Shown here piece after piece: positions 10,933-58,050 of a stretch of 64,000 nucleotides of DNA. The stretch's first letter is position 1, and every line of letters starts with the position of its first letter. The stretch is from positions 311,218 through 375,217 of the forward strand of contig QZKH01000003.1 in the NCBI GenBank assembly GCA_003598025.1, in the 5' to 3' direction. The notes below the pieces were generated by a model, which saw only the letters and a list, made by a program, of their open reading frames with translations, had not been told where the DNA came from and ran no database searches. Source of the stretch: Candidatus Omnitrophota bacterium. GTDB taxonomy: Bacteria > Omnitrophota > Gorgyraeia > Gygaellales > Profunditerraquicolaceae. The position numbers and the translations under genes were made by a program.

Positions 10933-10957
10933 TTAAAGATAAGAAAGGAAGGTGTCT

Positions 10958-26837: not shown

Positions 26838-26839
26838 AA

Positions 26840-33809: not shown

Positions 33810-34805
33810 CTACCAATAGTGTCTTTTATATTTTTTATAAAATGCTAGCGTCCTGCGGATACCATCCTCAAGGCTGACCTGCGGAAACCAACCGAGCATG
33901 TCTTTTATCTTTCCGTAATCAGCTACATAATTACCTACTTCAATCTTTTTTATATCACTCGGATAAGGTACGATCCTGTATGAACCTTTTTTGTTTATTT
34001 TTATTATCAGCCTGGTTATTTCTTCCAGGCTGATAGGAGTGCCTCCCAGGTTAAACACCTGTCCATTGGCTTCATTACGGGCCATGGCGATAATAAAAGC
34101 ATCAACCACATCATCAACATAGCTTACATCCCTGACCTGAGCGCCATCCCCGTATAATTTCACTTCATTGCCGTCAATAACCTGGCGGATAAGCCAGTTA
34201 ATTATTCCCTGACGGTGATGGTGCATCTGGTGCCTGGGCCCAAAGGTGTTGGTAAGCCTTAAAGAGCACGCTTTTATACCATAGACCTCGTTATATAAAA
34301 GGTGGTAACTCTCCCCTGCAATATTGTTTATGCCGTTAACATCAGCAGGCTTCAGCGGGTGCTTTTCATCTACGGGTAGATACTCAGGCCTGCCATATTG
34401 GCTGCGGGTGCCTGCGAATATGATTTTTATCCCCGGATTATAATTTCTGCAAGCCTCTAATATGGCAAGTTGAGCGGCACAGTTAACTTCAAGGTCTGTA
34501 AACGGATCCGTCATGCTGTCTATATGGCTTAATGTCCCGGCAAGATTAAAAAGCAGGTCTTTATCTTTAATAAGGAAGTTCATTGAGTATTTGTCACGGA
34601 CATCGGAAAAGTTTATTTTAACTTTGTTCTTTACCTGGTGAATATTAAACATATTACCGCCGTATTGCGGTATCAGGGAATCGACGATAGTCACGCTGGA
34701 TTTAAGCTTAACCAATCTTTGCGCAAGAGTACTGCCTATAAACCCCAGGCCCCCGGTAATAAGCACGGATTTTCCTTTATAATATTTTTCAAGGTTCTTC
34801 ATCAT
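33810..34805 (-). CDS. NAD-dependent epimerase (paralog of 1483..2472; CDP-paratose 2-epimerase-like)
   Basis: ITGGLGFIGSTL, NLAGTLSHIDS and GPRHQ are present. It is about 45-50% identical by eye to the 1483..2472 product. Confidence 0.75.
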   Translation of the reverse strand: MMKNLEKYYKGKSVLITGGLGFIGSTLAQRLVKLKSSVTIVDSLIPQYGGNMFNIHQVKNKVKINFSDVRDKYSMNFLIKDKDLLFNLAGTLSHIDSMTDPFTDLEVNCAAQLAILEACRNYNPGIKIIFAGTRSQYGRPEYLPVDEKHPLKPADVNGINNIAGESYHLLYNEVYGIKACSLRLTNTFGPRHQMHHHRQGIINWLIRQVIDGNEVKLYGDGAQVRDVSYVDDVVDAFIIAMARNEANGQVFNLGGTPISLEEITRLIIKINKKGSYRIVPYPSDIKKIEVGNYVADYGKIKDMLGWFPQVSLEDGIRRTLAFYKKYKRHYW

Positions 34806-35524
34806 GCCTGCCTTTCTTTAAAATTTAACGTCCACCATAATTTCAGGATATCCCTTCCCACTTGATAAATCCTTACGATATTGAAAAACTGCGACTTACC
34901 ATACACGCGGTGATAATGGCTGACACCGGTTTCAGCAAAAGAAAACCCGGCATTTTGTATTTTCTTTATCATCTCAACGCAAATAACACCGCTGTTATAC
35001 CTAAGCTTGATCTTATCAAATATACTTCTCCTCATCAGCCTGAAATCGCAATCTACATCCCTGATCTTAAAGCCAAACATAAGCTTCATCGTGTATTGGT
35101 AAATCCCTCCTATCACTTTCCTGCTAAGGCTATCACTCCGGCTGAGTTTATAGCCGTTGACAATATCTACTCCGGGGCCAAGGCAGGAAATAAGATTATT
35201 AAGCTCAGTAACGTCATATTGAAAATCGCCATCCGTATAAAAAATGAATTCTTTTTTTGATGAATAAATCCCTGACCTTAAGGCGCCACCATAGCCCTCA
35301 TTTCTTTCATGATAAATAAGCCTAAGAGCAGTATATTTTTTACACAGCTCTTCCAAAACAACCCGGCTGTTATCAGTGCTGCAATCATCCACTACTATTA
35401 TTTCATAGTCATCGCTTACCTGCCGTGCCACCTTATCCATAATCACAACCATGCTGGCAATAGAGCCGGCATCATTAAAACACGGGAAAAAACAAGAAAG
35501 ACTGATTTTTTTGTCCATGGTCAT
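34802..35524 (-). CDS. GT2, DPM1-like polyprenyl-phosphate sugar synthase
   Basis: VVDDCSTDNS, YTDGD and DVDCDFRLM are present. The likely true start is the second Met at 35518, with AAAGGA 6 nt upstream. Confidence 0.8.
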   Translation of the reverse strand: MTMDKKISLSCFFPCFNDAGSIASMVVIMDKVARQVSDDYEIIVVDDCSTDNSRVVLEELCKKYTALRLIYHERNEGYGGALRSGIYSSKKEFIFYTDGDFQYDVTELNNLISCLGPGVDIVNGYKLSRSDSLSRKVIGGIYQYTMKLMFGFKIRDVDCDFRLMRRSIFDKIKLRYNSGVICVEMIKKIQNAGFSFAETGVSHYHRVYGKSQFFNIVRIYQVGRDILKLWWTLNFKERQA

Positions 35525-35632: not shown

Positions 35633-36673
35633 TCATTTAATTTTTCCGAAGGCATAACCGTCCTTCCAGAATAAAATCAGGCCGGCAAGTATAACCGGCA
35701 TAGTATCAACGAACTGATAAACCAGTGAAAAGCTGAGTGCATCGGCCTTATTTATCCCAAAGGCGCCCAAGCCAACTATAAAACCCATCTGCATGGTCCC
35801 TAAGCTACCTAATGACGGTATCATTACAAAGAGGCCGATTACAACGAGAAGAAGACAAGCTGCCATTAGCCCTAATTCTATGGAGAAAACTTTAAACATG
35901 TAATAAATGGTCAAAGCTGCCATAAGCCAGATTATCAGGGATAATACGGCAATCATTGACACCTTCTTCCACCCCCGGAATATGACCAATCCCTCGGAAA
36001 GCTTAGTAAGCCGGACAGAACAAAAATCAGCAAAACTTAACGAAAACACTCCTGCAAACCGGCAAATCAATTTGATAAAATAACCTGAATTCCTGACCCA
36101 TATCAACAGAAATAATAAAATTAAAAAGCATAGTATCCCGAAAATCAATGCCAGCTGCTTTACATGGATGTTGTACAGCGCTTTTTCTAAACCAGTTGTA
36201 CTAAACAGCCCTACCCAGATAAAAATAACAACGCTAAATAAAACTAAAGTTAAAGCATCCCAGAGGCGTTCAAGAAGGACAGTCCCCAGGCAATAACTCT
36301 TGCTTACCGAGGATTTATGCCCCAATATATAAGCCTTATACACTTCCCCGGTCCTTGCCGGTAAGATATTATTAGCCATTAAACCGACAACTGTCGCAGA
36401 AAACAAAAGTTTATTATCCAGCTTTCTATCAAAAAATAAGCCCCAGCGTACTGATCGTATGTAACAATAAAGCCATAAACTTAATAATGCCGGTGCGACA
36501 TAAATATACTTCCCTTGCAAGATATAGGAAAATATCCCGGAGATAGTCGTTCCTTTAAAAGCGATGTATAACGCAGACAAAGTAACGAAAAACGATAATA
36601 GCAATGGTAAAATCTTAGTTTTTTTCATTTTTAAAAGAATTCTTATAAGCTGTCCAAACAACAGAGATACCAT
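35633..36673 (-). CDS. flippase-like polytopic membrane protein (LPG-synthase-TM/UPF0104-like)
   Basis: About 8 TM helices. A polyprenyl-phosphate-sugar GT2 immediately downstream and a GT-C protein upstream is the classic three-gene arrangement. Confidence 0.5.
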   Translation of the reverse strand: MVSLLFGQLIRILLKMKKTKILPLLLSFFVTLSALYIAFKGTTISGIFSYILQGKYIYVAPALLSLWLYCYIRSVRWGLFFDRKLDNKLLFSATVVGLMANNILPARTGEVYKAYILGHKSSVSKSYCLGTVLLERLWDALTLVLFSVVIFIWVGLFSTTGLEKALYNIHVKQLALIFGILCFLILLFLLIWVRNSGYFIKLICRFAGVFSLSFADFCSVRLTKLSEGLVIFRGWKKVSMIAVLSLIIWLMAALTIYYMFKVFSIELGLMAACLLLVVIGLFVMIPSLGSLGTMQMGFIVGLGAFGINKADALSFSLVYQFVDTMPVILAGLILFWKDGYAFGKIK

Positions 36674-38435
36674 AAGCCAGATAAATCAGTAAAAACTGCT
36701 CAATAGGCGCCCGATGCCTATATGACGCCTCGGTAATAAAATGTATTCCTGTCCTATAAGCGATAAAAATCAATATAAGTAAATGCGTCCCAAATAACCC
36801 ATATCTCCTGAAAGCCGCAAATATGCCTATTAATGTAAGGATATACGCATAAAACCACAAGCTGTAATAATAGTTGCTCAATCTATATAGAAATATCGGG
36901 TCAATCCCGCCATACCCCTGGTTTAAATACATAGCTTTAAATTTCATCCAATAATTATTGCCAAGGACCCTTAAAACAAATGACGGCTTCTCGTATAATA
37001 ACTTAAGAAATGACCCGGGGGCAGATAAATCAATTCCGGCTTTGACTAAGTCCGGGTTTTCTCCGCGGAGATAACTCTCTACTATTGGGTAATTTGTCCC
37101 TTCGGCGGATGAAACAGGATAATAGGTCCCCAGATTAACTTTGTTTCTCAATGCAAAAGGAGATAGTGAAATCAATACGAATACAACTATCAACAAACAG
37201 TCAACCACTGTTTTTTTAAAACCGGCTTTCCTGGATAAAAATAACATTAGCCCTAGAATAACCATAAATGGATAAAAAAAGTTTATCTCTCTGGTAGCAA
37301 TAGCCAGCCCCCAGATAAGCCCGGTTAATGCAAGATGCAGATTTTTTGCTTTAAAATTGCCCTGATAATAGATATATACTGCAAAAAGCATAACACCCAA
37401 AGTTGAGTAGAATAAATCCAATGCCTGGTGGCCTATAGCCGAGGAAGAAAAAATTGCCGAAAAATTTAAAGCTGACATAGCTGCAGTAATCCTTGCAGTT
37501 TTAAGGTTAAATAAAATTTTAGAAATAAAATACACAAAAATACAGGCCAGCGAAGTAAATATGCCCTGGATAAAACATACCGCAAAATAACTCCTGCCAA
37601 ATATCGCATATACCCCAGACACAAATAACCAGTAACCGGCGACTAAGGCCTCGGTTATGTTGTTTCCCTGCATATAAGCATACGCAAGAGAATCATAAAG
37701 CCTGCCATCAGAACCAGTATCGATATATTCTGGAACCGACATTATCCTGTATAAGTAAAATATCCGTAACGCAAGGGCAAAAATAAAGATTAATAACAAA
37801 AATACCTTCTCATTAAGCAACCAGCCTTTAATACTGCTTGCCCTTACAAAAATTGTATTTTGGGCCGGGTACTTTTTGAGAGACCTAAAAATTCCTAAAC
37901 CAAAAACTAAAAGGATGAAACATGGCAGAAATATAAATCCGTTTAAAAAGAGTGCCGAAGCTATATACACCAGAAGCATTAAAAACAAAGAGGTATAAAC
38001 ATTGGATGAATAACTCTGCCCGCTGTTTTGATTTCTGTTCAGTTCAAATACCTTTGATGAGTATAGTGCTAATAAACTAAAAGCTGACAAAATAAACAAG
38101 TCACAATAAAAAACATAAGCCTGGCTTCCTAATAACCGGGCGGCTCCTTTTGAAAGTTGAAATTTTAACATTAATAAATCAATCAACAAATGCTGCAAAA
38201 AACCAAAAACCAGCATTTTCTTTATTATATTTACAAGTCTTATTTTAAGAAGATACGATATAAAAGCTGAATATAGGAAAACTACTAACCAAAAAAATAC
38301 AGGAACAGGAAAACCTTTATGCACTGCAATAGGAAAATCAAGGCTGAATAAAGATGATATCTTTGGGCTCAAGGAAATAAGCTCAAGCAAAACAAATACG
38401 GCTGCCGCTAAAAAAATGATTGCCTGTTTTTTCAT
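36615..38435 (-). CDS. large polytopic membrane protein, GT-C-like (ArnT/PMT-type) glycosyltransferase candidate
   Basis: 606 aa with more than 12 TM helices and loop acidic motifs. It neighbours a GT2 polyprenyl-P-sugar synthase and a flippase-like protein. Confidence 0.45.
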   Translation of the reverse strand: MKKQAIIFLAAAVFVLLELISLSPKISSLFSLDFPIAVHKGFPVPVFFWLVVFLYSAFISYLLKIRLVNIIKKMLVFGFLQHLLIDLLMLKFQLSKGAARLLGSQAYVFYCDLFILSAFSLLALYSSKVFELNRNQNSGQSYSSNVYTSLFLMLLVYIASALFLNGFIFLPCFILLVFGLGIFRSLKKYPAQNTIFVRASSIKGWLLNEKVFLLLIFIFALALRIFYLYRIMSVPEYIDTGSDGRLYDSLAYAYMQGNNITEALVAGYWLFVSGVYAIFGRSYFAVCFIQGIFTSLACIFVYFISKILFNLKTARITAAMSALNFSAIFSSSAIGHQALDLFYSTLGVMLFAVYIYYQGNFKAKNLHLALTGLIWGLAIATREINFFYPFMVILGLMLFLSRKAGFKKTVVDCLLIVVFVLISLSPFALRNKVNLGTYYPVSSAEGTNYPIVESYLRGENPDLVKAGIDLSAPGSFLKLLYEKPSFVLRVLGNNYWMKFKAMYLNQGYGGIDPIFLYRLSNYYYSLWFYAYILTLIGIFAAFRRYGLFGTHLLILIFIAYRTGIHFITEASYRHRAPIEQFLLIYLAYGISVVWTAYKNSFKNEKN

Positions 38436-39871
38436 TAAGGTTGCTCCTTCAGTATCTTTTTACCGGATATTTTTGTGATACCGATTGCTGCCCAGATAGC
38501 TACTACAGGAGTAATCATATCCCTGAAGCGTAATACCGTCCCGATATTTGCCTGGGTCAAAGACAAAGCAGAAACCAATAAAAACGAATAAATCAAAAGA
38601 ATCAGATACCTCTTCCAGGCATAACGAAGAGAAATAAATAAACCTAAAGGCGAAAGTAAAACCATAATATACCAAAGCAACATCTGAGGATAAGCCAAAA
38701 ACATGGTTTTTTTGACAGGTCTGAATATATTAGGCTCAAAGATGAAATGAAACAAACCTCTCATATAAGCCATTATATATTGCCCATAGCTTAGCTTGTT
38801 AGCAGGATACACATAACACTCTTCATCAGGCTGCTTTCCAAATACAAAATATGGATTTAAGATATAGTACTTGTCTTCAAGTATCCTGTAGTTATTCCCG
38901 GGCGTCTTTGCTGAAGCCTGATGCAAAGATAACACCCTGAATATTTTTTGACGGAATATCTTATCGATCTTGGCCGGGCTAAGCCTGAATAGCACTATAG
39001 ATGAAAAAATAATGATTAATACAATGAATATCTTCACTTTAAGACGCGGGTGTCCGGAAACAGCTAAAGCTGTTATAAATAAACTAAGCAACACTATTGG
39101 CATAATAAATTTTCTCAGGGTTGAGAGTATAAATAATGCAATAAATATCGCAAAAAATAATATTATCTTCTGCCGGACATAAGGATAAGAAGTCAATTTT
39201 ATAAAAAGCCAGAATATGCATAAAATCACCAGGATTAAAGATGCGTCTTTAAGATTGGTTATGGACCACAACAGCAATGACGGAAAAAATGCCATTAACA
39301 AAGCGGATATTCTGCTTACATTTAAAGAAAAAACCTGCCGGCAGACATAATAACAAACAACCGGTATCAGTGAACCAAAAAGGCAATTCATTATGGCACT
39401 TGATACAGGGCTGAAACCAAACAAGTAATTAAACCCGGCTATAATAAAATTGTAGCCCTGCCATCCATAAACAGGGTTATAAGCCGAGCCAAGAACTTTC
39501 TGGGTAAGAAAAAAACCTCTCCAGTCTAAAGACATCCAATACCCTCTCAATGTATAGTAGGCGCTGTCACCGATGAACTTAACAGACCAGCCAGGATATC
39601 CGGGATAAAATAAAACTTCGTTTCTTGAAACCATAAACGCGCTGACTGAAAAAAGCAGAAGCAGCCTTAACAAAAATGCAGCCATAAAAAGATTCATTAT
39701 AAACCTGGATTCGGCATCAGCTTTTATATTTTTTTTAAGAACTACCAGTAAAACAACTAACGAAACAGTAAAACCTCCGGGACTTAAGAAAAATAATAAC
39801 CCTAAGAGTGCTGATATGATCACAACCTTTATATCGATCATCGCCGCTATCATCTCTCTATCGCTTTCCAT
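38435..39871 (-). CDS. polytopic membrane protein, GT-C-like candidate
   Basis: 478 aa with about 11 TM helices. Its start codon overlaps the stop of the upstream gene by 1 nt. Confidence 0.4.
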   Translation of the reverse strand: MESDREMIAAMIDIKVVIISALLGLLFFLSPGGFTVSLVVLLVVLKKNIKADAESRFIMNLFMAAFLLRLLLLFSVSAFMVSRNEVLFYPGYPGWSVKFIGDSAYYTLRGYWMSLDWRGFFLTQKVLGSAYNPVYGWQGYNFIIAGFNYLFGFSPVSSAIMNCLFGSLIPVVCYYVCRQVFSLNVSRISALLMAFFPSLLLWSITNLKDASLILVILCIFWLFIKLTSYPYVRQKIILFFAIFIALFILSTLRKFIMPIVLLSLFITALAVSGHPRLKVKIFIVLIIIFSSIVLFRLSPAKIDKIFRQKIFRVLSLHQASAKTPGNNYRILEDKYYILNPYFVFGKQPDEECYVYPANKLSYGQYIMAYMRGLFHFIFEPNIFRPVKKTMFLAYPQMLLWYIMVLLSPLGLFISLRYAWKRYLILLIYSFLLVSALSLTQANIGTVLRFRDMITPVVAIWAAIGITKISGKKILKEQP

Positions 39872-40575
39872 TGAAAATAGGCAATACCAATCCAGGTTAA
39901 ATTATGCGAAACAGCAAAAGCTATCAATACAAGATACAACGGGCTAAGGCCCCACTGATTATAAAATACCGGCAAAGTTACGGAAGCCAAAAATAATATG
40001 TTAATATCCCTGGTTGACACCCAAAGGAAAATCTTTGCCAGTTTTATAAAAATATTTGAGCTCGTCTCCTTTTTAAAATGAGCTGCCGAGGAGCTATCCA
40101 TAAGGTTAAAAATCCAGTTTCCGGATTTGACTGGAGTATGGATTAACGCTTTTTTCATATGAAAACCAAATGCCAGGAAGAAAAGGATAATAAATATTCT
40201 TGCGTCTAAGGTTTTGAGGTATATACCTAAACATACAAAAAAACCTAAAAGAGTACCGCTTGTCCCCTGGAAGTTATTCTCCAGGTATTCAAGCCACTGC
40301 CCCTCAATAGTTACTTTATTCTTGAGCCTGGCTAAATCACCATCCACATAGTCAAATATATCCGATAGTTGAAGCAAAATTCCGGCTGTAAAAATAGCAT
40401 ATAAGCTGCATTTAAGATAAAGATACATTGCTGCTATCACTAAAAATGACCTAAAAAAAGTAATTGCATTAGGCGTAACAGGGGTCTTTAAAAGGGCCTT
40501 GGCAAGCGGAAGAGAAAAACCCCTGTTTATCCGGTCAACAATATCCCCGTATTTTGTCAATCTTTCTTCATTCAT
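39850..40575 (-). CDS. CDP-alcohol phosphotransferase-family membrane protein (variant motif)
   Basis: The motif is D-Y-V-D-G-D-L-A-R-x8-G-x3-E-x3-N, compared with the consensus DG-x2-AR-x8-G-x3-D-x3-D. There are 5-6 TM helices. The start is set at the internal Met, giving an ATGA overlap with the upstream radical SAM gene. Confidence 0.6.
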   Translation of the reverse strand: MNEERLTKYGDIVDRINRGFSLPLAKALLKTPVTPNAITFFRSFLVIAAMYLYLKCSLYAIFTAGILLQLSDIFDYVDGDLARLKNKVTIEGQWLEYLENNFQGTSGTLLGFFVCLGIYLKTLDARIFIILFFLAFGFHMKKALIHTPVKSGNWIFNLMDSSSAAHFKKETSSNIFIKLAKIFLWVSTRDINILFLASVTLPVFYNQWGLSPLYLVLIAFAVSHNLTWIGIAYFQWKAIER

Positions 40576-41996
40576 CTTTTTCTGAATACCTCCGTTATCA
40601 TATATATTCCAGCCAACAAGAAACCGCGTATTTGCCTGGGGTTCTTCAGGAGATGGCAAAATAACATCCAAAAATAGCCAAAACGAAAATAAAATCTCTT
40701 ATGTGCCGACTGGTATAACTCATAAATATCATCTCCGCTGAGATAGTCATTATGGAACTTTGTCCTCTGATGTAGCCCCATATCTGCCCAGTCTCTGACA
40801 TTGTCCAGCCAGCCCTTTTCTTTTGCCTGCCTGTAAAGATCAGTCCCGGGAAAAGGTGTAGTTATGCAATATTGGGCTATGTGCGGGTTCAATTTTATGG
40901 AAAATTCAATGGTTTGACGCACTGTTTCTTTATCATCCTTTGGCAGGCCTATCATAAAGCTGCAAAGAACAAGAAACCCCTCTCTTTTGGCCGAAGCTAC
41001 TATTTCTTCTGCTACGGGTAATTTGATATTTTTTTGTACGTCGTCAAGTACGCCCTGGTTGCCGCTTTCAACTCCGAAGTTAAGACCGTAGCATCCGGCG
41101 CGCCGCATTTTTCTGAAAAGCTGCCTGGGATAAATGAAATCAAGCCTTGCGTAGCACCACCAGTTAATTTTTAATTTTCTTTTTAAAAGCTCATCGCAGA
41201 ATTCTTCTGCCCTGGTTTTATTCGCTAAAAATGTATCATCAAGTATCGCAATCTGCCTGGTCCCGTATTTGTTATAAAGCATCTCGATCTCTGAAATAAT
41301 ATTTCCTATGCTGCGGAAACGAACCTTCGGCCCCCAGAAATGCAAAGATGAACAATACCTGCATCTGCTGGGGCATCCGCGCGAAGAAATCAGCGTCATG
41401 CTTTTTTTCCCGGAAAATCCTATATTCCAAAGAGCACCCGGCCGGTATAGTTCAAGCCTAAACAATTCCCTTGCCGGAAACATAACTGTATCAAGGTCTT
41501 CTATCCTTTCACGGGAGTGGTTTACGATTATTTTTCCTTTATCCCTGAAGGCAATGCCCCTGATATTAAAAAGGTTACCGAACGAATTCCTGATCAGCTC
41601 TTTTACCGTCTCTTCCCCTTCACCCATTACAATGATATCTACTTCGGGCAAGCCGGTTAAAGTCTCTTCAGGAAAGAAAGTCACATGCGGCCCGCCGATA
41701 ATAATCTTCTTATTTGACTGTCTCTTTACTTCCCTGGCCAATTTAGCAATTATAGGGATCATCAAAGTAGTCGAGGACAAACCGATGATATCGGAATCTG
41801 AAAGCAAGATTTTGCTGATTGTCTGTTCAATGCTGAGCTGTTCGGCATTGGCATCAAGTATCTCAACTTCGGCGCCTTCCTGTATTGCAGACGCGGCAAT
41901 ATAAGCTAATCCCAGGGGGATCTGGACCTGTACGGCATGCTTAAACCCGGAATAAACATCCTCTAAATAAGGGGGATTCACTAATAATAGCTTCAT
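40572..41996 (-). CDS. B12-binding radical SAM enzyme (class B)
   Basis: 474 aa. There is an N-terminal B12-binding-like domain, then SRGCPSRCRYCS CxxxCxxC. Confidence 0.85.
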   Translation of the reverse strand: MKLLLVNPPYLEDVYSGFKHAVQVQIPLGLAYIAASAIQEGAEVEILDANAEQLSIEQTISKILLSDSDIIGLSSTTLMIPIIAKLAREVKRQSNKKIIIGGPHVTFFPEETLTGLPEVDIIVMGEGEETVKELIRNSFGNLFNIRGIAFRDKGKIIVNHSRERIEDLDTVMFPARELFRLELYRPGALWNIGFSGKKSMTLISSRGCPSRCRYCSSLHFWGPKVRFRSIGNIISEIEMLYNKYGTRQIAILDDTFLANKTRAEEFCDELLKRKLKINWWCYARLDFIYPRQLFRKMRRAGCYGLNFGVESGNQGVLDDVQKNIKLPVAEEIVASAKREGFLVLCSFMIGLPKDDKETVRQTIEFSIKLNPHIAQYCITTPFPGTDLYRQAKEKGWLDNVRDWADMGLHQRTKFHNDYLSGDDIYELYQSAHKRFYFRFGYFWMLFCHLLKNPRQIRGFLLAGIYMITEVFRKR

Positions 41997-42009: not shown

Positions 42010-43305
42010 CTACCACAGCTTCAGCCAGATACAAACCTGCCTAAAGATTAATTTTGCCTGGCTGCTATAATGAAAAAGCGCAAAATTAAAGAGAAAATAA
42101 ATGCTTATCCATATTGCTGCCTTCTTTTTGTTGAGAACCTTTGAAAAAACATTGTTTAGGCCGAATGCGGATACAATTATTAAAGACGGCTCAAAACCGA
42201 TTCTGAACCTCGGCAATGCAAAATAAACCAAGTGTATGATTTGAAAATAAAGGACAGGCATTAACAGCGTCAGATAGCTGTAACTGAGTTTCCTGAATAT
42301 CAGCATTATCCCATAAAAGAAAAATGGAGCAAGAAATGCAAACCCGAAATTATAAACAGCTATTCCATTGCCTAGTATTTCCCAATCCAAGGGAGACCAC
42401 AAGTATAGAACCTTAAGAATCTCGAGTTTTAATGTCTTATAAGGATTATTCCTTACGAAATCCACGGTTTTACGGAAGAAGAAACTCCGCCTCTCTTTGA
42501 ATGAGCTTATAGACCTGGCCTCTATCATTACCGGATCATTGTCAGGCCTGATACCAAATATTTTCCCCTGGTAAGGGCAGAATGAATTATAAAGCCCTCT
42601 ATCCGGGGCTTCTGTAACCGGTATTACCTGGCCTCCGGAAACATAATAGTTTCTCATACTCCACGGTATTATTACGCAAGCAAAAAGAATAAAAAAAACT
42701 ATCTGCCTGAAAAAATTTTTCGCTAGCCCCAGGTGTTTCCTTGCTGAGAGAAAAAACAACAAAGACAATGACGGAGCAAAAAGTATAACAACGGAACGGG
42801 TCAATACGCTCATCCCCAGAAATAAACTGCTTAAAGAAAGAAAGATCATTCTGTGGTTCTTAACATATTTAATTGCAAAATACAGCGTTAGTGTAAATAA
42901 GAATACAAAAATATTTTCTGAAAGCAGCAGGCTTGGCAGCCGGATAAATACCGGGTATAAGCATACGATTATAGCCGAAATTAATGATATTCGCTTATTA
43001 AAATACTCTAATGAGGTCTTATACACAACTAAACAAAGTAGAGCACCAAGCAAAGACTGAATTAAGATTATTGCCGGAATATTCTGTCCAAATAATGAAT
43101 ATATAGCCGCCAGAAATGCAGGATAAACCGGGTGGTCTTTTAACGGAAATTGGGCAAGCATTTCCGGCGTTAATATTCCCCATCGCACGATGTCTAATGC
43201 CAGATCATTATAAACCAAGGCATCCCCGCTAAGGTTAACCGGCAGCCACAAATATGGTATTAAACGTATAAAAAAAGCCGCAATAATTATTAAAATGATT
43301 GTCAT
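42010..43305 (-). CDS. GT-C ArnT/PMT_2-like polytopic glycosyltransferase candidate
   Basis: 431 aa. The first loop is acidic (SGDALVYNDLALD), and there are about 11 TM helices. Confidence 0.5.
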   Translation of the reverse strand: MTIILIIIAAFFIRLIPYLWLPVNLSGDALVYNDLALDIVRWGILTPEMLAQFPLKDHPVYPAFLAAIYSLFGQNIPAIILIQSLLGALLCLVVYKTSLEYFNKRISLISAIIVCLYPVFIRLPSLLLSENIFVFLFTLTLYFAIKYVKNHRMIFLSLSSLFLGMSVLTRSVVILFAPSLSLLFFLSARKHLGLAKNFFRQIVFFILFACVIIPWSMRNYYVSGGQVIPVTEAPDRGLYNSFCPYQGKIFGIRPDNDPVMIEARSISSFKERRSFFFRKTVDFVRNNPYKTLKLEILKVLYLWSPLDWEILGNGIAVYNFGFAFLAPFFFYGIMLIFRKLSYSYLTLLMPVLYFQIIHLVYFALPRFRIGFEPSLIIVSAFGLNNVFSKVLNKKKAAIWISIYFLFNFALFHYSSQAKLIFRQVCIWLKLW

Positions 43306-44375
43306 TTCGCCAGATTATATCTTACCCGGGGGCCTAACAAACGCTGGACAAAAACAGGCTGCAGGCCCCAGATTTTTTTAATAAATTGTAAATTCCCGGA
43401 ATCAGGTGTCAGTGGTTCAGGCAAAGCTTGTTTTTGCCTATTATCTTTAAATAAATAATAATAATTATATTGCCTTAACTTTACTGCCCATTTCAACTTA
43501 TAGTTTAACTGGCCCTCATACCTTGCCGGGCCAAAATCAAAATATTGTATACTGTTATTTACTGCCCATTTGATAAATTCCCAATGGACGAGATCTACCG
43601 CCCTTTTGTGGTGCGCTTTCTCATCCGAAGCTATATATTGAATATAAACTCTATCACCGCAGGCAAACCCCAAAAGTGCCGCAATTACCTTTTTACCGTC
43701 CCTGACAAAGAATATCTTCATTTTGTCATTAAAATATTTCAGGCAGGTATAAAAATATTTAATACTTAGCGGCGGGGAAAGAAGCCTGTGATGAGACTTT
43801 AAATACAACGGATAAAAAAACTTCTTAACCGAGCCGTAGCTGGCTTCCTGAAAACATTCTAATTTCTCCCGCAGAGCCTTATTCACAGCCTTCTTTACCT
43901 GATAATCAAATGCCTCCCATAGCCCGGATTCGCCTGCGCTTAAATCAAGCTCAGCATAATTATAAAAATTAAGCTTTAAGAAATTATCCTGCATATAACC
44001 CTCTTCAATACCCAGGCCGCCATTTACCTGGAGGTAATCTAACTTATTATCAGCCATTAAAACTCTTACATATTCTATCAGCTTTGGGAATTCTATACTC
44101 TGCGGACGGTTAGAAATAATACCTCCATATTCAGCGAACGGGACTGATTCCAGCTTCCTATAAAATAGTGTCTTTACTACATAAAGGGGCAGGACGCCGA
44201 AGGCTTCGTTATTTTCGCTTAAAATAAGGTAATAAGGCTTATATCCAAAGACCTCCCTTATTACCTCCTGATACTCGGCCATCTGGTAAAACCTGGCCTG
44301 CCGGCTTGATAATACAAGATTATTCCATTCAGTCTTATTTATGGTACCCTGGCTTTTGATATCCATATTCGTCAT
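43302..44375 (-). CDS. FemAB-like / GNAT-fold acyl- or aminoacyl-transferase
   Basis: 357 aa and soluble. Its length and spacing fit the FemAB/Acetyltransf_6 type. It pairs with a CE4 deacetylase, as in EPS loci. Confidence 0.45.
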   Translation of the reverse strand: MTNMDIKSQGTINKTEWNNLVLSSRQARFYQMAEYQEVIREVFGYKPYYLILSENNEAFGVLPLYVVKTLFYRKLESVPFAEYGGIISNRPQSIEFPKLIEYVRVLMADNKLDYLQVNGGLGIEEGYMQDNFLKLNFYNYAELDLSAGESGLWEAFDYQVKKAVNKALREKLECFQEASYGSVKKFFYPLYLKSHHRLLSPPLSIKYFYTCLKYFNDKMKIFFVRDGKKVIAALLGFACGDRVYIQYIASDEKAHHKRAVDLVHWEFIKWAVNNSIQYFDFGPARYEGQLNYKLKWAVKLRQYNYYYLFKDNRQKQALPEPLTPDSGNLQFIKKIWGLQPVFVQRLLGPRVRYNLAK

Positions 44376-45183
44376 TTAATACATTTTTTACAGAATCAAA
44401 CTCAAAATCTCCAAGCAATTTAATCAGTTTTTGTGCAACAGAATCTTTATTAAAATTAAGTATAAAATCTTCTGCTAAAGGCAGGTCCATGTCAGACTTA
44501 GTATTTAATACCTCATGAGGATGAAAATAAGCCATGGCAGAAGATTTCTTTTTGTTTAACCTTTTAAATACATACCTGGTAACAAAATAAGGCAAAGCCC
44601 TAAGGTAAAAACCTCCTCCGACAATAATGTTTTTCCCGAATAATTTTATAGTAGTCGGCGGGATCTCCCATAACCCGGAATCATGCTTATATATCCTCCT
44701 CTGAGCCCCTTCTATTCCGTATAAGAAGTTTACAGCCGGTGAAATACTGGAATCGTATGAAAACCCGCATTCTTTTATTAAATCAATAGCCCAAAGTGAT
44801 TTCTTTGTAATCGACCAGTACGGAGCGCGAAAACCAATAATCTGAGTACCGGTAATCCTTTCTAAAGCATTTTTTGATCTCATTAAATCATCCTTAAACT
44901 GTTCTGGCTTTAATGTAAAAATTGGCCTATGCTGATAACCATGGCTTGCAATTTCATGGCCGCTATTTACAATATTTTTTACTGCCTGCGGCAGGCGCTC
45001 AGCAATAACACCTAGAACAAAAAAAGTTGCCTTATGATTATATCTTTTCAAAAGACCGAGAAACATATCAATTGAACGCGATACTTCTTCAAGGCCCGCA
45101 GTTTCGTCAACCAGTTTATCCCTGCCATATCTGGAATGCAGGAAACTTTCAACATCTATAGTCAAAATATTCTTAATCATCAA
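44335..45183 (-). CDS. polysaccharide deacetylase (CE4, NodB homology domain)
   Basis: TIDVES is motif 1 (Asp), HGYQH is the His-His metal motif, and RAPYW is present. Confidence 0.75.
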   Translation of the reverse strand: MMIKNILTIDVESFLHSRYGRDKLVDETAGLEEVSRSIDMFLGLLKRYNHKATFFVLGVIAERLPQAVKNIVNSGHEIASHGYQHRPIFTLKPEQFKDDLMRSKNALERITGTQIIGFRAPYWSITKKSLWAIDLIKECGFSYDSSISPAVNFLYGIEGAQRRIYKHDSGLWEIPPTTIKLFGKNIIVGGGFYLRALPYFVTRYVFKRLNKKKSSAMAYFHPHEVLNTKSDMDLPLAEDFILNFNKDSVAQKLIKLLGDFEFDSVKNVLNDEYGYQKPGYHK

Positions 45184-45878
45184 AAACTAAGCCTGAATTT
45201 AATTATTGCCAAAAGCACCTTAAAACCTATACGCCAGTGCAGCTTCTTTCCTTCCCGGTGAGTCCTGGGAACATAATCTATCGGGATCTCATAAATATTT
45301 TGTCCGTTTTTAATAAGCCTTGTCGTGATTTCTGCTTCAATCTCGAAACCATTGGATTTTAAATGTAATTTCTTTGCGACCTCTTTTGTGAAGACTTTAT
45401 GGCACGTAGCTATATCCGAAAGCCGGACCAGGAACAGAATGTTCACTGCCCAGGTTATAAGCTGGTTTCCGATGTAACTGCCAAACCGGGTCATTCCCCT
45501 GCCCCTTAGAAATCTGGAGCCAAATACGACTTTTTTATGGCCTGCAATTATCGGATTTAATAAGTACGGGTATTCTGCCGGCAGGACTTCCAGATCTGCA
45601 TCCTGGATCAGGAAAATATCACCGCTTGCCTCTTTAAACCCCAGCCGTATTGCTGCGCCTTTACCCTTCCTTTTCTCTTCGTGTATTACTTTTATATCTT
45701 TTCTTCCGAGATTCTGCAAAATCTCTTTTGTCCCGTCAGTCGAACAGCCGTCAACTACGATTATCTCTTTTTCAAGCCCGATATCTACATCATCTATCCG
45801 TTTTATGATCTCACGGATAGTGCGCTTTTCATTATAAACTGGTATTATAATCGATACGCTCTTCATTCCCTGATCCAC
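45180..45878 (-). CDS. GT2, DPM1-like polyprenyl-phosphate sugar synthase
   Basis: VSIIIPVYNE, VVDGCSTDGT and QDADL are present. 232 aa. Confidence 0.8.
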   Translation of the reverse strand: MDQGMKSVSIIIPVYNEKRTIREIIKRIDDVDIGLEKEIIVVDGCSTDGTKEILQNLGRKDIKVIHEEKRKGKGAAIRLGFKEASGDIFLIQDADLEVLPAEYPYLLNPIIAGHKKVVFGSRFLRGRGMTRFGSYIGNQLITWAVNILFLVRLSDIATCHKVFTKEVAKKLHLKSNGFEIEAEITTRLIKNGQNIYEIPIDYVPRTHREGKKLHWRIGFKVLLAIIKFRLSF

Positions 45879-46570
45879 TTCTTTAGGTTATCGTTGATCT
45901 CTTCAATATGCTGAAGCTGCTCTATTGCCATCCAATCCTCTTTTATAAAATACGGCAATACGCGTTTTCCTTCTTTAATAACAATATCTATCAGCATCGG
46001 CATCGTAAAAAACTTATTCTTGGGTATATAATTCAAACAGGAAGACTTGATTATATATATACCTGAACTTATAGAATGGTGTTCAACCGGTTTCTCTATA
46101 ATGCCCTTTATGCGGCCGTTTTTGATATCCATTACTCCAAAAGCAAGCCTTTGGGATATCTTTTTTGTCCCGACGCTCAAATCTGATTTCCTGCGGTTAT
46201 GAAAATCAATCATTTTTTCAAAGTCAAGCCTGGTCAGGATATCTCCATTCATCAATAAAAATGATTCTTTATCCGTAAACGCAAATTTATCGGCAATCAA
46301 TTTTAGAGAACCGGCGGTGCCTAACGGCTCTTCTTCATGTATGTAATCAATCTTGATACCGAATTTTCTGCCGTGTTGAAAGTATGTCCGTATAAGCTCA
46401 GCTTTATAGCCGACTGACAATATAAAATGCTTAAAACCGTGTTTCTTCAGACGGTTGATTATTACCTCCAGGATTGGTTTTTCACCAACAGGTATAAGCG
46501 GCTTCGGGATAGCAAAAGTAAGCGGCCGTAACCTGGTACCCTGTCCTCCGGCTAATATTATCGCTTTCAT
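45863..46570 (-). CDS. sugar-1-phosphate nucleotidyltransferase (HddC/GMP-like short NTP-transferase)
   Basis: MKAIILAGGQGTRLRPLT...PKPLIPV...LGTAGSL...MNGDIL resembles heptose/mannose-1-P guanylyltransferases. Confidence 0.8.
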   Translation of the reverse strand: MKAIILAGGQGTRLRPLTFAIPKPLIPVGEKPILEVIINRLKKHGFKHFILSVGYKAELIRTYFQHGRKFGIKIDYIHEEEPLGTAGSLKLIADKFAFTDKESFLLMNGDILTRLDFEKMIDFHNRRKSDLSVGTKKISQRLAFGVMDIKNGRIKGIIEKPVEHHSISSGIYIIKSSCLNYIPKNKFFTMPMLIDIVIKEGKRVLPYFIKEDWMAIEQLQHIEEINDNLKKWIRE

Positions 46571-46589
46571 TTCAACCTCCGATCAATAG

Positions 46590-47582
46590 TTATATAGCAT
46601 AACCTTTACGGTTATACTGATGCTGGTGCGAAGCAACATATTCAATTGTAAGCCTTAACCCTTCCTCGAGGCTGATTTGAGGCCGCCAGCCAAGAAGCTT
46701 CCTTGCTTTTTTATTATCTGCGCATAAGCACATAACCTCGCTTTTCTTTGGCCTTATGCGCATTTTTTCATGCCTGATATCTACATCTTTTCCTATTAAA
46801 CCGGCTATGATTTTTGCAAGCTGGCCGATAGAAACGCTTCTAGATGTGCCAATATTGATAATCTCTCCTGTGCTTTTTGGCGACTCAGCCACCCTGATAA
46901 ACCCGCTGACAGTATCAGCTACATATGTAAAATCTCTTTTCGGCGCGATATTCCCCAGGCAAATGACCCTATTCTTTAAAGCCTGTGCTATTATTGTAGG
47001 GATTACCGCCCTTAATGACTGCCTTGGGCCAAAACAATTAAATGGCCGTATAATAGATACGGGCAGGCCGTAGGAACAGTAAAAACTTAGAGCCAGGGCA
47101 TCGGCTGCAATTTTACTCGCAGAATACGGCGATTGGGCCTGCAGGGGATGCTTTTCATCGATCGGCACATAAAGCGCAGTGCCATAAACCTCACTTGTAG
47201 AAGTCTGCACAATCTTACAGATTTTATTCTCTCTTGCTGCAATCAGTATATTAAGGGTACCCAACGTATTAGTATCGACTACTTCCTGGGGGTGCTCGTA
47301 TGAATAAGGGATGCCCACCAGGGCTGCCAGGTTAAATATTACTTCATTATGATCTACAGCCTTCCTGACGGTTTCCATTTCCTTGATATCTCCATAGAAA
47401 ATTTCAAGCCGCTTGCTTTTATTTACCAATAGATGATTAATGTGGCCTGCGTCGCCATGCGGGTTATATTCGACAAAAGCCCGGACAAACGCGCCTAAAG
47501 AAAGCAGCCTCTCTGTCAGATGGCTTCCTATAAAACCGCCTGCTCCGGTAACTAAAACCTTTTTATCTTTCCATTTAAACAT
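46590..47582 (-). CDS. NAD-dependent NDP-sugar epimerase/dehydratase
   Basis: VLVTGAGGFIGSHL, YSASKIAAD (YxxxK) and STSEVYG are present. Confidence 0.8.
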   Translation of the reverse strand: MFKWKDKKVLVTGAGGFIGSHLTERLLSLGAFVRAFVEYNPHGDAGHINHLLVNKSKRLEIFYGDIKEMETVRKAVDHNEVIFNLAALVGIPYSYEHPQEVVDTNTLGTLNILIAARENKICKIVQTSTSEVYGTALYVPIDEKHPLQAQSPYSASKIAADALALSFYCSYGLPVSIIRPFNCFGPRQSLRAVIPTIIAQALKNRVICLGNIAPKRDFTYVADTVSGFIRVAESPKSTGEIINIGTSRSVSIGQLAKIIAGLIGKDVDIRHEKMRIRPKKSEVMCLCADNKKARKLLGWRPQISLEEGLRLTIEYVASHQHQYNRKGYAI

Positions 47583-49632
47583 TTTGCTTGCTCCTTTTCG
47601 ATTTCAGTTTTGCTCCCAAAAGCTCTTTATATAATTCTGATAATTTCTGAGCATACCTATCTGCTGTAAAATTTTCTATCACTCGTTTTCTGGCAGCATC
47701 TGCATACAAGGATGCGCGTCCCGGATCAAGAAGCAGCTCTTTAATTGCATCTGCCAATGCTTTGGAATCAGCGGGATTAACTAATATGCCGCTCTCTCTA
47801 TCCTGTATAACTTCCGGCACGCCGCCTACACGGGTCGCAACACAGGCAACACCCATATACATCGCCTCGATCAAGACAATACCAAATGCCTCATTCAACG
47901 CAGGAGAGACAAAAACAGAGAATAAAGGCAATAAATCAGCAATGTCCCTTCTTTTGCCGGTAAATAATACCCTATCGGTAATCCTTCTTTCTGAAACTGA
48001 CTCTTCTAACTCATTTCTTAGCGGCCCATCACCTACCAGGACTAACTTTAGCCTCGGCTCCCAGTTTAACAAGTTAAAGACAGCATCAATTAAATAAATA
48101 TGGCCCTTTCTCCTGGCTAGTGACGCAACATAGCCCACAATAATATCTTCCCGGCTCAAGCCCAATTCCTCCAACAATTGATATTTACTCTTAACGGGAG
48201 AAAATTCTGTTGTATCGATTACATTATGGATTACAAGAAACTTTTCAAAAGGAATCCGGTCCTGGCTGCTTATTGATAAAGCTGTCCTGCCAGAACAGGC
48301 TATAATCCTGTCTGTTGAACGTGCCAGCCACCTGTTAACAGGTTTTAACAACCATTCCAATCGCCTGTTATACCTTTCATATTCGCTTTGTTCTTCGGCG
48401 ATTATAACCGGTACCCTGCAAAACCAAGCTGCCAGCCTTGTATGCAAATTAGTATTTGTCAGGCAAGAATGTACGATTGAGAAACTTCCGCGTTTTAAAT
48501 AACGCAGCAAAGCAAACGTAGTAAATAAGTTTAAAGACCTGTCGCTTTTATTAAGACAATCTACCTTAAACCCGAGCTTAATAAACTCCTCTGCGAGGTC
48601 GCCCTTTTCTTTAATGCAACAAATTGAAATTTCCAATCCTGAGCTGTCAAACATTTTCAAAATATTCAGCCTGTTTTTTTCCGCCCCGCCTATCCCTAGT
48701 GTGGGATGCACAAAAAGTACTCTTGGCTTAATTTTCCTGCAAACGACAACAGCCCTGTCTCCGCACTTGAGCCATCTTAAAAGAGTACACCCTGAGATGA
48801 ATGAAGAGATATTCTTTATTCCTATAGATAGCCTATTCTTAAAAGACAACTTTTTATAGACAAAATCTGGCTTGGCTCTATTTTCATATACTTCCTCATA
48901 AATAACCTCAAAACCGGTTGTTTTAAGAATAGCCCTTAAGGTTTCCGGTCTGAATTCCCATAAGTGCGTAGGAGGGCTATCAGAAAGCCTTTCTTTCTTA
49001 AATAACATATTGAATCTCAGAAAAATATTAAAAAGCGAACGGTTATAAGTCAATGGCTGTTCCAGGACCAGGATACCGCTATCCCTAAGCAAATTACCGG
49101 CAAGCTCTAAGCTTTCGGCCGGAGAGGGAACATGCTCCAATACATCTGCCATATTGATTACGTCAAACCGATTACCAGGATATATACCTTTACAAAACTC
49201 GCCATTCTTTATCTCTGCCTTGAGCCTGCTGCTTGCATGTTCAGACATCTTTTTATTTGGTTCCAACCCATAGACATTAAATCCTGCTCTTTGCGCCTGT
49301 AAGCAGAAAGCACCGGCTGCGCACCCGACATCAAGCAGGTCTCCGGAACTCACAAATTTTTTCATTGCAGAGATTGCCTTTAAATGGTGGGGGCTGGCTA
49401 AATCATCATCCTGCAAGCAGCCCAATTTATCTGCCCCAGGAATATAGTATTCATTAAAATAGGAATCGCCGGTATATATGCCTTCCAGGACATCTTTCGA
49501 TGGCATAGGATCGAGATAAATAAAACCGCAATCAACGCAACGGACCAAAAAATACTCTTTTCCCTTGAAAAGATACCCTCCATAGATTGTTTTTTTGTAT
49601 CTTACGGACCCGCAGATTATACAATTCATCAA
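47575..49632 (-). CDS. fusion: N-terminal Zn-ribbon + SAM methyltransferase, C-terminal GT4 glycosyltransferase
   Basis: The N-terminus has CIICGS...CVDCG and LLDVGCAAGAF (motif I). The C-terminus has EAFGIVLIEAMYMGVACVATRVGG, the GT4 E-x7-E motif. Confidence 0.75.
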   Translation of the reverse strand: MMNCIICGSVRYKKTIYGGYLFKGKEYFLVRCVDCGFIYLDPMPSKDVLEGIYTGDSYFNEYYIPGADKLGCLQDDDLASPHHLKAISAMKKFVSSGDLLDVGCAAGAFCLQAQRAGFNVYGLEPNKKMSEHASSRLKAEIKNGEFCKGIYPGNRFDVINMADVLEHVPSPAESLELAGNLLRDSGILVLEQPLTYNRSLFNIFLRFNMLFKKERLSDSPPTHLWEFRPETLRAILKTTGFEVIYEEVYENRAKPDFVYKKLSFKNRLSIGIKNISSFISGCTLLRWLKCGDRAVVVCRKIKPRVLFVHPTLGIGGAEKNRLNILKMFDSSGLEISICCIKEKGDLAEEFIKLGFKVDCLNKSDRSLNLFTTFALLRYLKRGSFSIVHSCLTNTNLHTRLAAWFCRVPVIIAEEQSEYERYNRRLEWLLKPVNRWLARSTDRIIACSGRTALSISSQDRIPFEKFLVIHNVIDTTEFSPVKSKYQLLEELGLSREDIIVGYVASLARRKGHIYLIDAVFNLLNWEPRLKLVLVGDGPLRNELEESVSERRITDRVLFTGKRRDIADLLPLFSVFVSPALNEAFGIVLIEAMYMGVACVATRVGGVPEVIQDRESGILVNPADSKALADAIKELLLDPGRASLYADAARKRVIENFTADRYAQKLSELYKELLGAKLKSKRSKQNV

Positions 49633-58021: not shown

Positions 58022-58050
58022 ATTATACTGTAGGCGGTTACATTTGACTA
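58022..58050 (-). promoter_or_regulatory. putative sigma70-like promoter for the MarR-phosphonate operon
   Basis: On the minus strand: TAGTCA (-35-like, 4/6), an 18-nt spacer, then TATAAT (perfect -10). This lies in the 94-bp gap upstream of the regulator. Confidence 0.3.

Follow-up and report, generated by a model that had tools for sequence, protein, structure and literature searches.

A long surface-polysaccharide locus of a Candidatus Omnitrophota bacterium carries, on one strand, genes predicted to make and activate a phosphonate, a gene for a CDP-alcohol (CDP, cytidine diphosphate) phosphotransferase-family protein and, overlapping the latter, a gene for a B12-binding radical S-adenosylmethionine (SAM) enzyme, raising the question as to what the transferase moves and whether the radical SAM enzyme is its partner. 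The stretch of DNA analysed, referred to here as the window, is 64,000 nucleotides long (contig QZKH01000003.1, assembly GCA_003598025.1, positions 311,218 to 375,217); all of the large open reading frames (ORFs) in its gene map, 54 of 54, are on the minus strand and form a single long array. The product of 39850..40575 is a genuine member of the CDP-alcohol phosphotransferase family, and we see about an even chance that it is an active, divergent enzyme acting as the phosphonyl transferase of the surface-glycan cluster. We think it unlikely that the overlapping radical SAM gene serves it as a dedicated partner. The transferase gene and its motif are as follows.

39850..40575, minus strand: CDP-alcohol phosphotransferase-family protein of 241 aa with the E96/E99-N100 variant motif, proposed to be a CMP-HEP:acceptor phosphonyl transferase (CMP, cytidine monophosphate; HEP, 2-hydroxyethylphosphonate); assigned by Pfam, PDB, and AlphaFold with Foldseek.

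40276..40353, minus strand: signature motif DYVDGDLARLKNKVTIEGQWLEYLEN (D75..N100) of this protein, from the translation and the subfamily column counts.

The initial annotation had placed this protein in the CDP-alcohol phosphotransferase family, and both profile and structural comparisons bear this out. PF01066 (CDP-OH_P_transf) matches residues 34-117 with 38.2 bits against a cut-off of 22, and the top PDB sequence match is AF2299 (E = 3e-12). The AlphaFold model (pLDDT 80.6, pTM 0.79) begins with an N-terminal helix, after which come about six long ones, corresponding to the six-helix transmembrane (TM) fold with N-terminal interfacial helix of the solved members, and the CDP-OH_P_transf fold is recovered by Foldseek, for which the top matches are AF2299, PIPS, IPCT-DIPPS and PgsA1 (probability 1.0, TMq 0.56-0.64). 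Scores against curated families (archaetidylinositol-P synthase 44.9 bits, DIPPS 37, PIPS 32) are all far under their cut-offs. The start codon, ATG at 40575..40573, agrees with the N-termini of homologues and with a 100%-identical 241-aa protein from a Candidatus Omnitrophota metagenome-assembled genome (MAG).

The motif reads D75-Y-V-D78-G79-D-L-A82-R83-x8-G92-x3-E96-x3-N100, with E96 and N100 where the canonical G2xxxD3xxxD4 pattern has its third and fourth Asp. An exhaustive homology search of 1.84 billion cluster representatives returned only two with E < 1e-30 and about 40 more at 1e-10 to 1e-22; the best of these weaker matches, and all 22 of those aligned, are about 207-266 aa long, mostly near 240, and align over their full length. 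We compared 28 subfamily sequences, six from an Omnitrophota clade that includes the window protein and 22 from outside it. D75, D78, G79, A82 and G92 are invariant in 28/28, and R83 is kept in 22/28, with T, V or I in the other six; this conservation of the nucleotide and metal-1 residues across the subfamily argues for retained binding of a CDP- or CMP-linked donor.

The initial annotation had singled out Glu and Asn as replacing the last two Asp of the consensus, and both residues are indeed present, but the Glu is ordinary for the subfamily and only the Asn is distinctive. Position 96 is Glu in 24 of the 28 sequences and Asp in four, and because Glu is the norm (18/22 outside the clade) we reject the D-to-E change as meaningful. 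Position 100 is Asp in 18/28, Asn in six, all of the Omnitrophota clade, Gly in two, and Glu and His in one each. Counting the truncated homologue P0006, Asn stands at D4 in 7/7 clade sequences, always after E99, and is found nowhere else in the subfamily; position 99, Glu throughout the clade, is outside it always uncharged and mostly hydrophobic. In these alignments N100 is thus the sole distinctive substitution and is confined to a tiny Omnitrophota clade. Since D4 is the presumed catalytic base and a second-Mg ligand in M. tuberculosis PgsA1 (PMC6506517), the Asn is mechanistically meaningful, and the covariation suggests that E99, specific to the clade and one residue ahead, probably makes up for the lost D4, the carboxylate being shifted rather than lost. 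The clade keeps the remaining motif residues and the full-length architecture at 50-60% identity, and it offers a test by nature of the role proposed for the catalytic base in the CDP-alcohol phosphotransferase superfamily.

A potential donor for the transferase is suggested by three genes upstream in the cluster, the first of which encodes a phosphoenolpyruvate (PEP) mutase, Ppm.

54508..55821, minus strand: cytidylyltransferase-PEP mutase fusion (Fom1-like), the predicted source of CMP-HEP; PEP_mutase 177 bits and CTP_transf_like 49 bits, TIGR02320 392 bits (cut-off 320).

53387..54514, minus strand: phosphonopyruvate decarboxylase (Fom2/Ppd); TIGR03297 468 bits (cut-off 312).

52246..53424, minus strand: Fe-alcohol dehydrogenase (Fe-ADH), a predicted phosphonoacetaldehyde reductase (FomC/PhpC-like); Fe-ADH Pfam match, and orthologues in Fulvitalea and Segatella so annotated.

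All components of a HEP-type module are therefore present: Ppm, Ppd, Fe-ADH and a cytidylyltransferase domain fused to the N-terminus of Ppm (CTP_transf_like at residues 12-132). In Streptomyces, Fom1, Fom2 and FomC make cytidylyl-2-hydroxyethylphosphonate, with Fom1 forming CMP-HEP (PMC8158854, PMC6697681), and since the same set is found here CMP-HEP is the expected product of the module. Pfam scans of every window ORF of at least 150 aa found no other cytidylyltransferase domain in the 64 kb, no LicD or TagF-like transferase, and no enzyme making an ordinary CDP-alcohol.

The strongest argument for a CMP-HEP:acceptor transferase slot, and for the ability of the CDP-alcohol phosphotransferase subfamily to fill it, comes from HEP modules elsewhere. 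We refer to comparison loci by L-numbers and to homologous proteins by P-numbers. On an unrelated contig, L021, the module (cytidylyltransferase-Ppm, CyT-Ppm, 67% identical to that of the window; Ppd, 53%; Fe-ADH, 47%) is followed two genes later by P0156, a subfamily member of about 240 aa that is 26% identical to the window transferase, has the canonical fourth Asp, and lies between a UDP-GlcNAc 2-epimerase gene and a flippase gene. Two annotated records from Bacteroidota were also compared. In Fulvitalea axinellae (pFA2; CyT-Ppm 62% identical) the gene right after the orthologous three-gene module encodes a LicD family protein, and in Segatella copri (CyT-Ppm 54% identical) it encodes a CDP-glycerol glycerophosphotransferase family (TagF-like) protein, the locus continuing with an O-antigen polymerase, a flippase and glycosyltransferases. 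The HEP transferase thus appears to undergo non-orthologous displacement among LicD, TagF-like and CDP-OH_P_transf proteins, and because three unrelated families of transferases for CDP-linked donors occupy this slot, it is likely to be that of the CMP-HEP:acceptor transferase, one which the CDP-alcohol phosphotransferase subfamily can apparently fill. The swapped genes and their modules are at L027:12001-16459 (LicD), L028:11287-16761 (TagF-like) and L021:379-5939 (CDP-OH_P_transf).

In the window the HEP module is separated from the transferase by a polysaccharide flippase gene and a glycan block, and the transferase is flanked by membrane glycosyltransferase (GT) genes. The features concerned, including a methyltransferase (MT)-GT4 fusion, are:

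55840..57591, minus strand: soluble Phosphodiest-family protein (alkaline phosphatase superfamily); PF01663 126 bits, no TM segment, orthologues in L009, L010 and L019, and a 27%-identical homologue in L025.

51116..52249, minus strand: soluble sulfatase-family protein (alkaline phosphatase superfamily); no TM segment, orthologues in L009, L010 and L019.

49629..51110, minus strand: Wzx-type polysaccharide flippase linking the ppm module to the glycan block; Polysacc_synt, the anchor of the synteny scans.

43302..49632, minus strand: conserved glycan-tailoring block of MT-GT4 fusion, LegB-like 4,6-dehydratase, sugar-1-phosphate nucleotidyltransferase, AglJ-like GT2, XrtA-type deacetylase and FemAB-like protein; profiles, and synteny with L001, L003, L006 and L023.

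42010..43305, minus strand: GT-C glycosyltransferase (PMT_2/ArnT-like), the upstream flank; PMT_2 60.8 bits, kept in L001, L002, L003, L006 and L023.

38435..39871, minus strand: GT-C glycosyltransferase (PMT_2), the downstream flank, with an alternative start at 39853; PMT_2 35.8 bits.

36615..38435, minus strand: third PMT_2-like GT-C membrane protein; PMT_2 30.7 bits.

35633..36673, minus strand: LPG_synthase_TM or flippase-like membrane protein; PF03706 124.6 bits, TIGR00374.

34802..35524, minus strand: GT2 resembling polyprenyl-phosphate hexose synthases (ArnC-like); profile matches.

The GT-C-like and ArnT-like flanks described in the initial annotation are accordingly both PMT_2 proteins, and together with the third GT-C, the polyprenyl-phosphate-hexose-synthase-like GT2 genes and the flippase-like gene they fit a lipid-linked acceptor. 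Within the glycan block, the nucleotidyltransferase at 45863..46570 has sugar-1-phosphate guanylyl- and thymidylyltransferases as its best matches and adjoins the LegB-like 4,6-dehydratase gene (418 bits), and because of this neighbour we take it to be a sugar-activating enzyme. As an IPCT/DIPPS-like source of a CDP-alcohol for the transferase we reject it as the main reading on the same evidence and also because L002 keeps the transferase without the nucleotidyltransferase.

Related Omnitrophota contigs show that this arrangement recurs. Two loci, one duplicating L009, came from a flippase-anchored scan of a metagenome collection, and a flippase-anchored genome scan gave two useful Omnitrophota loci, the remainder being distant Sorangium and other irrelevant matches; P0141, on a contig of only 1.4 kb, was uninformative as to context. 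The recurrent order is flippase, MT-GT4, (dehydratase, nucleotidyltransferase), GT2, deacetylase, FemAB-like, GT-C, (radical SAM), transferase, GT-C, GT-C, flippase-like, GT2. The block from flippase or MT-GT4 to GT-C is found in L001, L002, L003, L006 and L023 at 45-80% protein identity, its flippase end being visible in L001 and L002, while L003, L006 and L023 begin at the MT/GT4 gene or later. On the other side, L009 and L019 have the order Phosphodiest, Ppm, Ppd, ADH, sulfatase, flippase, MT/GT4, as does L010 with a different ppm module. L009 ends in the first ~125 residues of the MT-GT4 and L006, from the same sample, begins ~15-20 residues further in, and the two are probably adjacent, meeting within this gene. 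Every visible region upstream of the flippase carries ppm, and every visible region downstream carries the transferase.

In L010 (1529-9997) an apparent module swap has placed a different phosphonate module inside the fixed Phosphodiest and sulfatase/flippase flanks; in it NTP_transf_3 is fused to the C-terminus of Ppm, Ppd is split, and there are genes for a second, PntC-like nucleotidyltransferase, for an EamA transporter and for a radical SAM protein of the SPASM type, but none for an Fe-ADH.

From these observations a route can be proposed. On the family assignments and the established fosfomycin pathway, the Fom1-like fusion, Ppd and Fe-ADH would convert PEP to HEP and activate it as CMP-HEP. 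The transferase would grip the CMP moiety through D75, D78, G79, A82, R83 and G92; at the cytoplasmic membrane face a lipid-linked sugar or oligosaccharide would receive the HEP-phosphonyl group on one of its hydroxyls, with release of CMP. Either flippase, the Wzx-type or the LPG_synthase_TM-type, could then export the product, for installation by the GT-C enzymes or through a polymerase pathway.

Several observations weigh against this proposal. The transferase and the ppm module are not neighbours, being about 12 kb and 10 genes apart, and ppm and the E/N transferase are found together on no contig but the window, the synteny having been pieced together from partial, overlapping contigs. 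The sulfatase and Phosphodiest proteins are tied to ppm more tightly than the transferase is, even in the swapped module of L010. With Asn at D4, transferase activity does not seem assured. The subfamily members of L020 and L025 adjoin genes for an ATP-sulfurylase, a PHP-like protein and a half pyruvate-kinase-barrel/NTP_transf_3 fusion, that of L026 has no activating enzyme visible within 10 kb, and because these contexts differ the subfamily does not appear to be phosphonate-specific. The earlier suggestion that the phosphonyl group is transferred from CMP-HEP is partly supported: the CMP-HEP module in the cluster, the L021 link and the logic of the slot speak for it, the breadth of the subfamily and the distance from ppm against it.

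The module shared by L020 (5602-9807) and L025 (4771-12159) is itself recurrent, comprising PUA_2 plus ATP-sulfurylase, the PHP-like protein and the pyruvate-kinase C-terminal half-barrel/NTP_transf_3 fusion. It has an alkaline-phosphatase-superfamily companion, Phosphodiest in L025 and sulfatase in L020, and looks like an undescribed pathway in which a PEP- or sulfate-related head group is made as a nucleoside monophosphate conjugate for transfer to a glycan.

The initial annotation also proposed that the radical SAM enzyme and the transferase act as a pair, the former methylating CMP-HEP, and this part does not withstand comparison. The features at issue are:

40572..41996, minus strand: class B (B12-binding) radical SAM enzyme of 474 aa, probably a glycan- or sugar-tailoring enzyme; Pfam, NCBIfam and the contexts of orthologues.

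40572..40575, minus strand: ATGA stop/start overlap of the radical SAM and transferase genes, from the sequence.

The overlap is real, the radical SAM stop codon being TGA at 40574..40572, and the domain architecture is that of class B, with B12-binding PF02310 (85.5 bits), Radical_SAM PF04055 (68.3 bits) and the cluster motif CPSRCRYC. However, four-nucleotide overlaps are the commonest class of junction in the window (12 of 53, from mechanical ORF calls), and the downstream GT-C has a possible start at 39853 that would overlap the stop of the transferase as ATGA in the same way. Because of these counts we do not regard the overlap as special and reject it as a sign of a functional pair. The protein itself belongs to a large group, with a 100% match from a Candidatus Omnitrophota MAG and 2704 homologues at E < 1e-30, many of them in Omnitrophota, Patescibacteria and DPANN archaea; its closest solved relative is AprD4.

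In its fullest form the pairing would make the radical SAM protein a Fom3-like C-methyltransferase converting CMP-HEP to CMP-2-hydroxypropylphosphonate, with the coupled transferase moving the methylated phosphonyl group to its acceptor, and we consider this distinctly unlikely. Homologues of Fom1, Fom2 and FomC are in the cluster, Fom3, which acts on HEP-CMP, is likewise a radical SAM enzyme of class B (PMC8158854), and the overlapped adjacency of the two genes is conserved in L002, L003/L004, L006 and L023; B12 radical SAM genes also lie within two genes of subfamily members in L025 and L026, but these are not orthologous (26% and 34% identity). In L001 the transferase is present and the radical SAM gene absent, the upstream GT-C and the transferase being 20 nt apart. 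The glycan loci that hold the 64%-identical (L007) and 58%-identical (L008) orthologues of the radical SAM protein have no transferase and no ppm within 10 kb, and in none of the HEP clusters of L021, Fulvitalea and Segatella is there a B12 radical SAM gene beside the transferase slot. The gene therefore does not show the co-occurrence with a HEP-CMP-forming module expected of a Fom3. Judged from family profiles, with Fom3 itself (UniProt Q56184) outside the comparison, the protein is closest to HpnJ (236 bits, cut-off 578) and BchE (205), which outscore the phosphonate-related P-methyltransferase families (144 and 110), all of the scores being below cut-offs; and B12 radical SAM genes are plentiful in such clusters, the window itself holding two more of them and two other radical SAM genes. 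It is most likely that the radical SAM protein is an accessory glycan- or sugar-tailoring enzyme and not an obligatory CMP-HEP methylase.

Two further explanations differ from a CMP-HEP transferase in the donor or in the catalyst. The transferase could be unrelated to phosphonate and place a phosphodiester head group on a lipid or lipid-linked glycan of the cluster, using an ordinary CDP-alcohol from elsewhere in the genome (CDP-glycerol, CDP-inositol, CDP-ethanolamine/choline or CDP-diacylglycerol). Its closest characterised relatives do use CDP-inositol or CDP-diacylglycerol, it sits amid GT-C and polyprenyl-phosphate-sugar genes at a distance from ppm, and the L020, L025 and L026 members are not next to ppm. 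We nonetheless think this unlikely, given that no gene for making a CDP-alcohol accompanies it in the window, that ppm is upstream of the conserved flippase wherever this region is visible, that the L021 member is inside an orthologous HEP module, and that the window protein scores far below the cut-offs of all of the curated families. Alternatively, one or both of the soluble sulfatase- and Phosphodiest-family proteins might transfer the phosphonate or process CMP-HEP, in which case the E/N transferase would be an enzyme of reduced activity, a scaffold that binds CMP or CDP, or a pseudoenzyme in the GT-C machinery. The persistence of both genes beside ppm in L009, L010 and L019 despite the change of module type, the Phosphodiest homologue alongside a subfamily transferase in L025, the loss of the presumed catalytic base (PMC6506517) and the Gly at D4 in two other subfamily members are all in keeping with this. 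The conservation of motif and architecture within the clade, however, fits purifying selection on an active site, and the carboxylate may be replaced by E99, which changes together with N100; neither soluble protein has a TM segment or signal peptide by a crude hydropathy scan; and the HEP modules of L021, Fulvitalea and Segatella have no adjacent alkaline-phosphatase-superfamily gene and always a transferase for CDP-linked donors. We accordingly give this explanation only a small chance of being correct.

A last possibility, which we raise as a long shot, is that the loss of D4 reflects a changed nucleophile: the already anionic phosphate of polyprenyl phosphate or of a polyprenyl-phosphate-sugar would attack CMP-HEP to give a lipid-linked phospho-phosphonate anhydride. 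Once flipped by the LPG_synthase_TM-like protein, this lipid donor could serve the flanking, translationally coupled GT-C-like proteins in phosphonylating glycans beyond the cytoplasmic membrane. If true, this would be a previously unknown lipid-carrier route of phosphonate decoration and a non-glycosyl GT-C reaction.

Some other aspects of the cluster are of note. It is an unusually long co-directional glycan array, occupying the window from 1-64000 with 33 of 53 junctions overlapping. Of the four additional radical SAM genes (17060-18469, 30249-31706, 31722-32828 and 59103-60611), two are B12-binding, one is of the SPASM type and one is plain. The B12-binding gene at 59103..60611 is 3.3 kb upstream of ppm and has a 4-nt overlap with the next GT2 gene. 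Between this gene and the Phosphodiest gene is a 358-aa ORF (58048-59124) with no Pfam match, in which repeated W-x-L/I-D-x-x-N-x-L-like units seen by eye suggest a beta-rich repeat protein. The segments 24948-26870, 43302-45183 and 47575-49632 carry an XrtA/PEP-CTERM-system-type deacetylase (TIGR03006, 242 bits), a FemAB-like protein (TIGR03019), an stp2-like GT4 and an amidotransferase of the AsnB type, with no exosortase seen anywhere in the window. In L001, alone among the relatives in lacking the radical SAM gene, a DegT-type aminotransferase gene is inserted ahead of the upstream GT-C gene (7479-8693) and a class I SAM methyltransferase gene follows the transferase (10747-11613), possibly providing an alternative tailoring chemistry.

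The attachment of phosphonates to bacterial glycans is largely unsolved, cytidylyl activation being established and the transferases only predicted, and the locus described here together with its related contigs provides a concrete candidate for a HEP transferase, in a small AF2299-like subfamily of CDP-alcohol phosphotransferases. HEP esters are a major part of marine dissolved organic phosphorus, and identifying the families of HEP transferases therefore has biogeochemical relevance. Of the characterised relatives, AF2299 and IPCT-DIPPS of Archaeoglobus fulgidus (PDB 4o6m, 4mnd), which use soluble CDP-inositol-type donors, are the best match in sequence and fold, sharing with the window protein a small six-helix core, an N-terminal juxtamembrane helix and the motif residues D1, D2, G, A, R and G, and its donor is probably a soluble CMP-linked head group and not CDP-diacylglycerol. 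The window transferase differs from them in having no fused cytidylyltransferase (this being fused to the PEP mutase), in its 22% identity and its bacterial surface-glycan setting, in having Glu at D3, Asn at D4 and an extra Glu one residue earlier, and in an inserted low-confidence segment at 147-160. Eukaryotic ethanolamine and choline phosphotransferases, which accept CMP-aminoethylphosphonate, provide a case of phosphonyl transfer within the same superfamily, but they are larger, have a canonical DxxxD, and use diacylglycerol as acceptor and aminoethylphosphonate (AEP) as head group. The HEP modules of Fulvitalea and Segatella are similar in combining orthologous CyT-Ppm, Ppd and phosphonoacetaldehyde reductase genes with a transferase for a CDP-linked donor in a polysaccharide locus, but the transferase family differs and in the window it is distal to the module, among GT-C genes.

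Phosphonolipid ppm neighbourhoods of Group 1 are credited to Yu et al. 2013 and to Li and Horsman 2022 (PMC8942020). Published work on AEP phosphonolipids already includes CDP-alcohol transferases encoded in ppm clusters, and CDP-OH_P_transf genes together with an HpnL-type membrane protein mark the largest family of ppm neighbourhoods, Burkholderiales_CDP-OH, predicted to make these lipids, none of its transferases having been characterised biochemically (PMC8942020; PMC5987646). The HpnL-type family, to which the 35633..36673 protein belongs, is also found in Burkholderia and Nostoc phosphonolipid clusters (PMC5987646), which resemble the window in gene content: a Ppm-fused cytidylyltransferase, a CDP-OH_P_transf protein and an HpnL/LPG_synthase_TM protein. 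The predicted logic of Burkholderiales_CDP-OH, a CMP-phosphonate donor used by a CDP-alcohol-type transferase, is also the same. The seven-gene core of that family consists of Ppm, Ppd, AEPT, a 2-oxoglutarate (2OG)-Fe(II) oxygenase, two PntC and the two phospholipid-type genes for CDP-OH_P_transf and HpnL-like proteins (PMC8942020, PMC5987646); no AEPT, 2OG oxygenase or PF12804 PntC was found in the window, which lacks the full core. Where those clusters predict AEP or 1-hydroxy-AEP (AEPT, 2OG oxygenase) activated by a PF12804 PntC and a diacylglycerol acceptor, the window has the HEP branch, with Fe-ADH and a PF01467 cytidylyltransferase, in a 60-kb glycan cluster with three GT-Cs and a predicted lipid-linked glycan acceptor. 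The present case is set apart by the HEP branch, the PF01467 cytidylyltransferase, the small AF2299-like subfamily, and the glycan and GT-C setting with the N100/E99 variant.

The fosfomycin pathway of Streptomyces (Fom1, Fom2, FomC, Fom3, FomD and Fom4) is another close known system, Fom1-, Fom2- and FomC-like genes and a class B radical SAM gene all being in the window cluster, with no homologue of FomD (the HPP-CMP hydrolase) or Fom4 (the epoxidase) detected in the window. Unlike in that pathway, the radical SAM gene stands at a distance of 10 genes and has orthologues in loci without ppm, and the CMP handle, instead of being cryptic, would serve for transfer. Direct transfer of HEP from CMP-HEP would give the 'cryptic' cytidylylation of fosfomycin biosynthesis a natural ancestral role.

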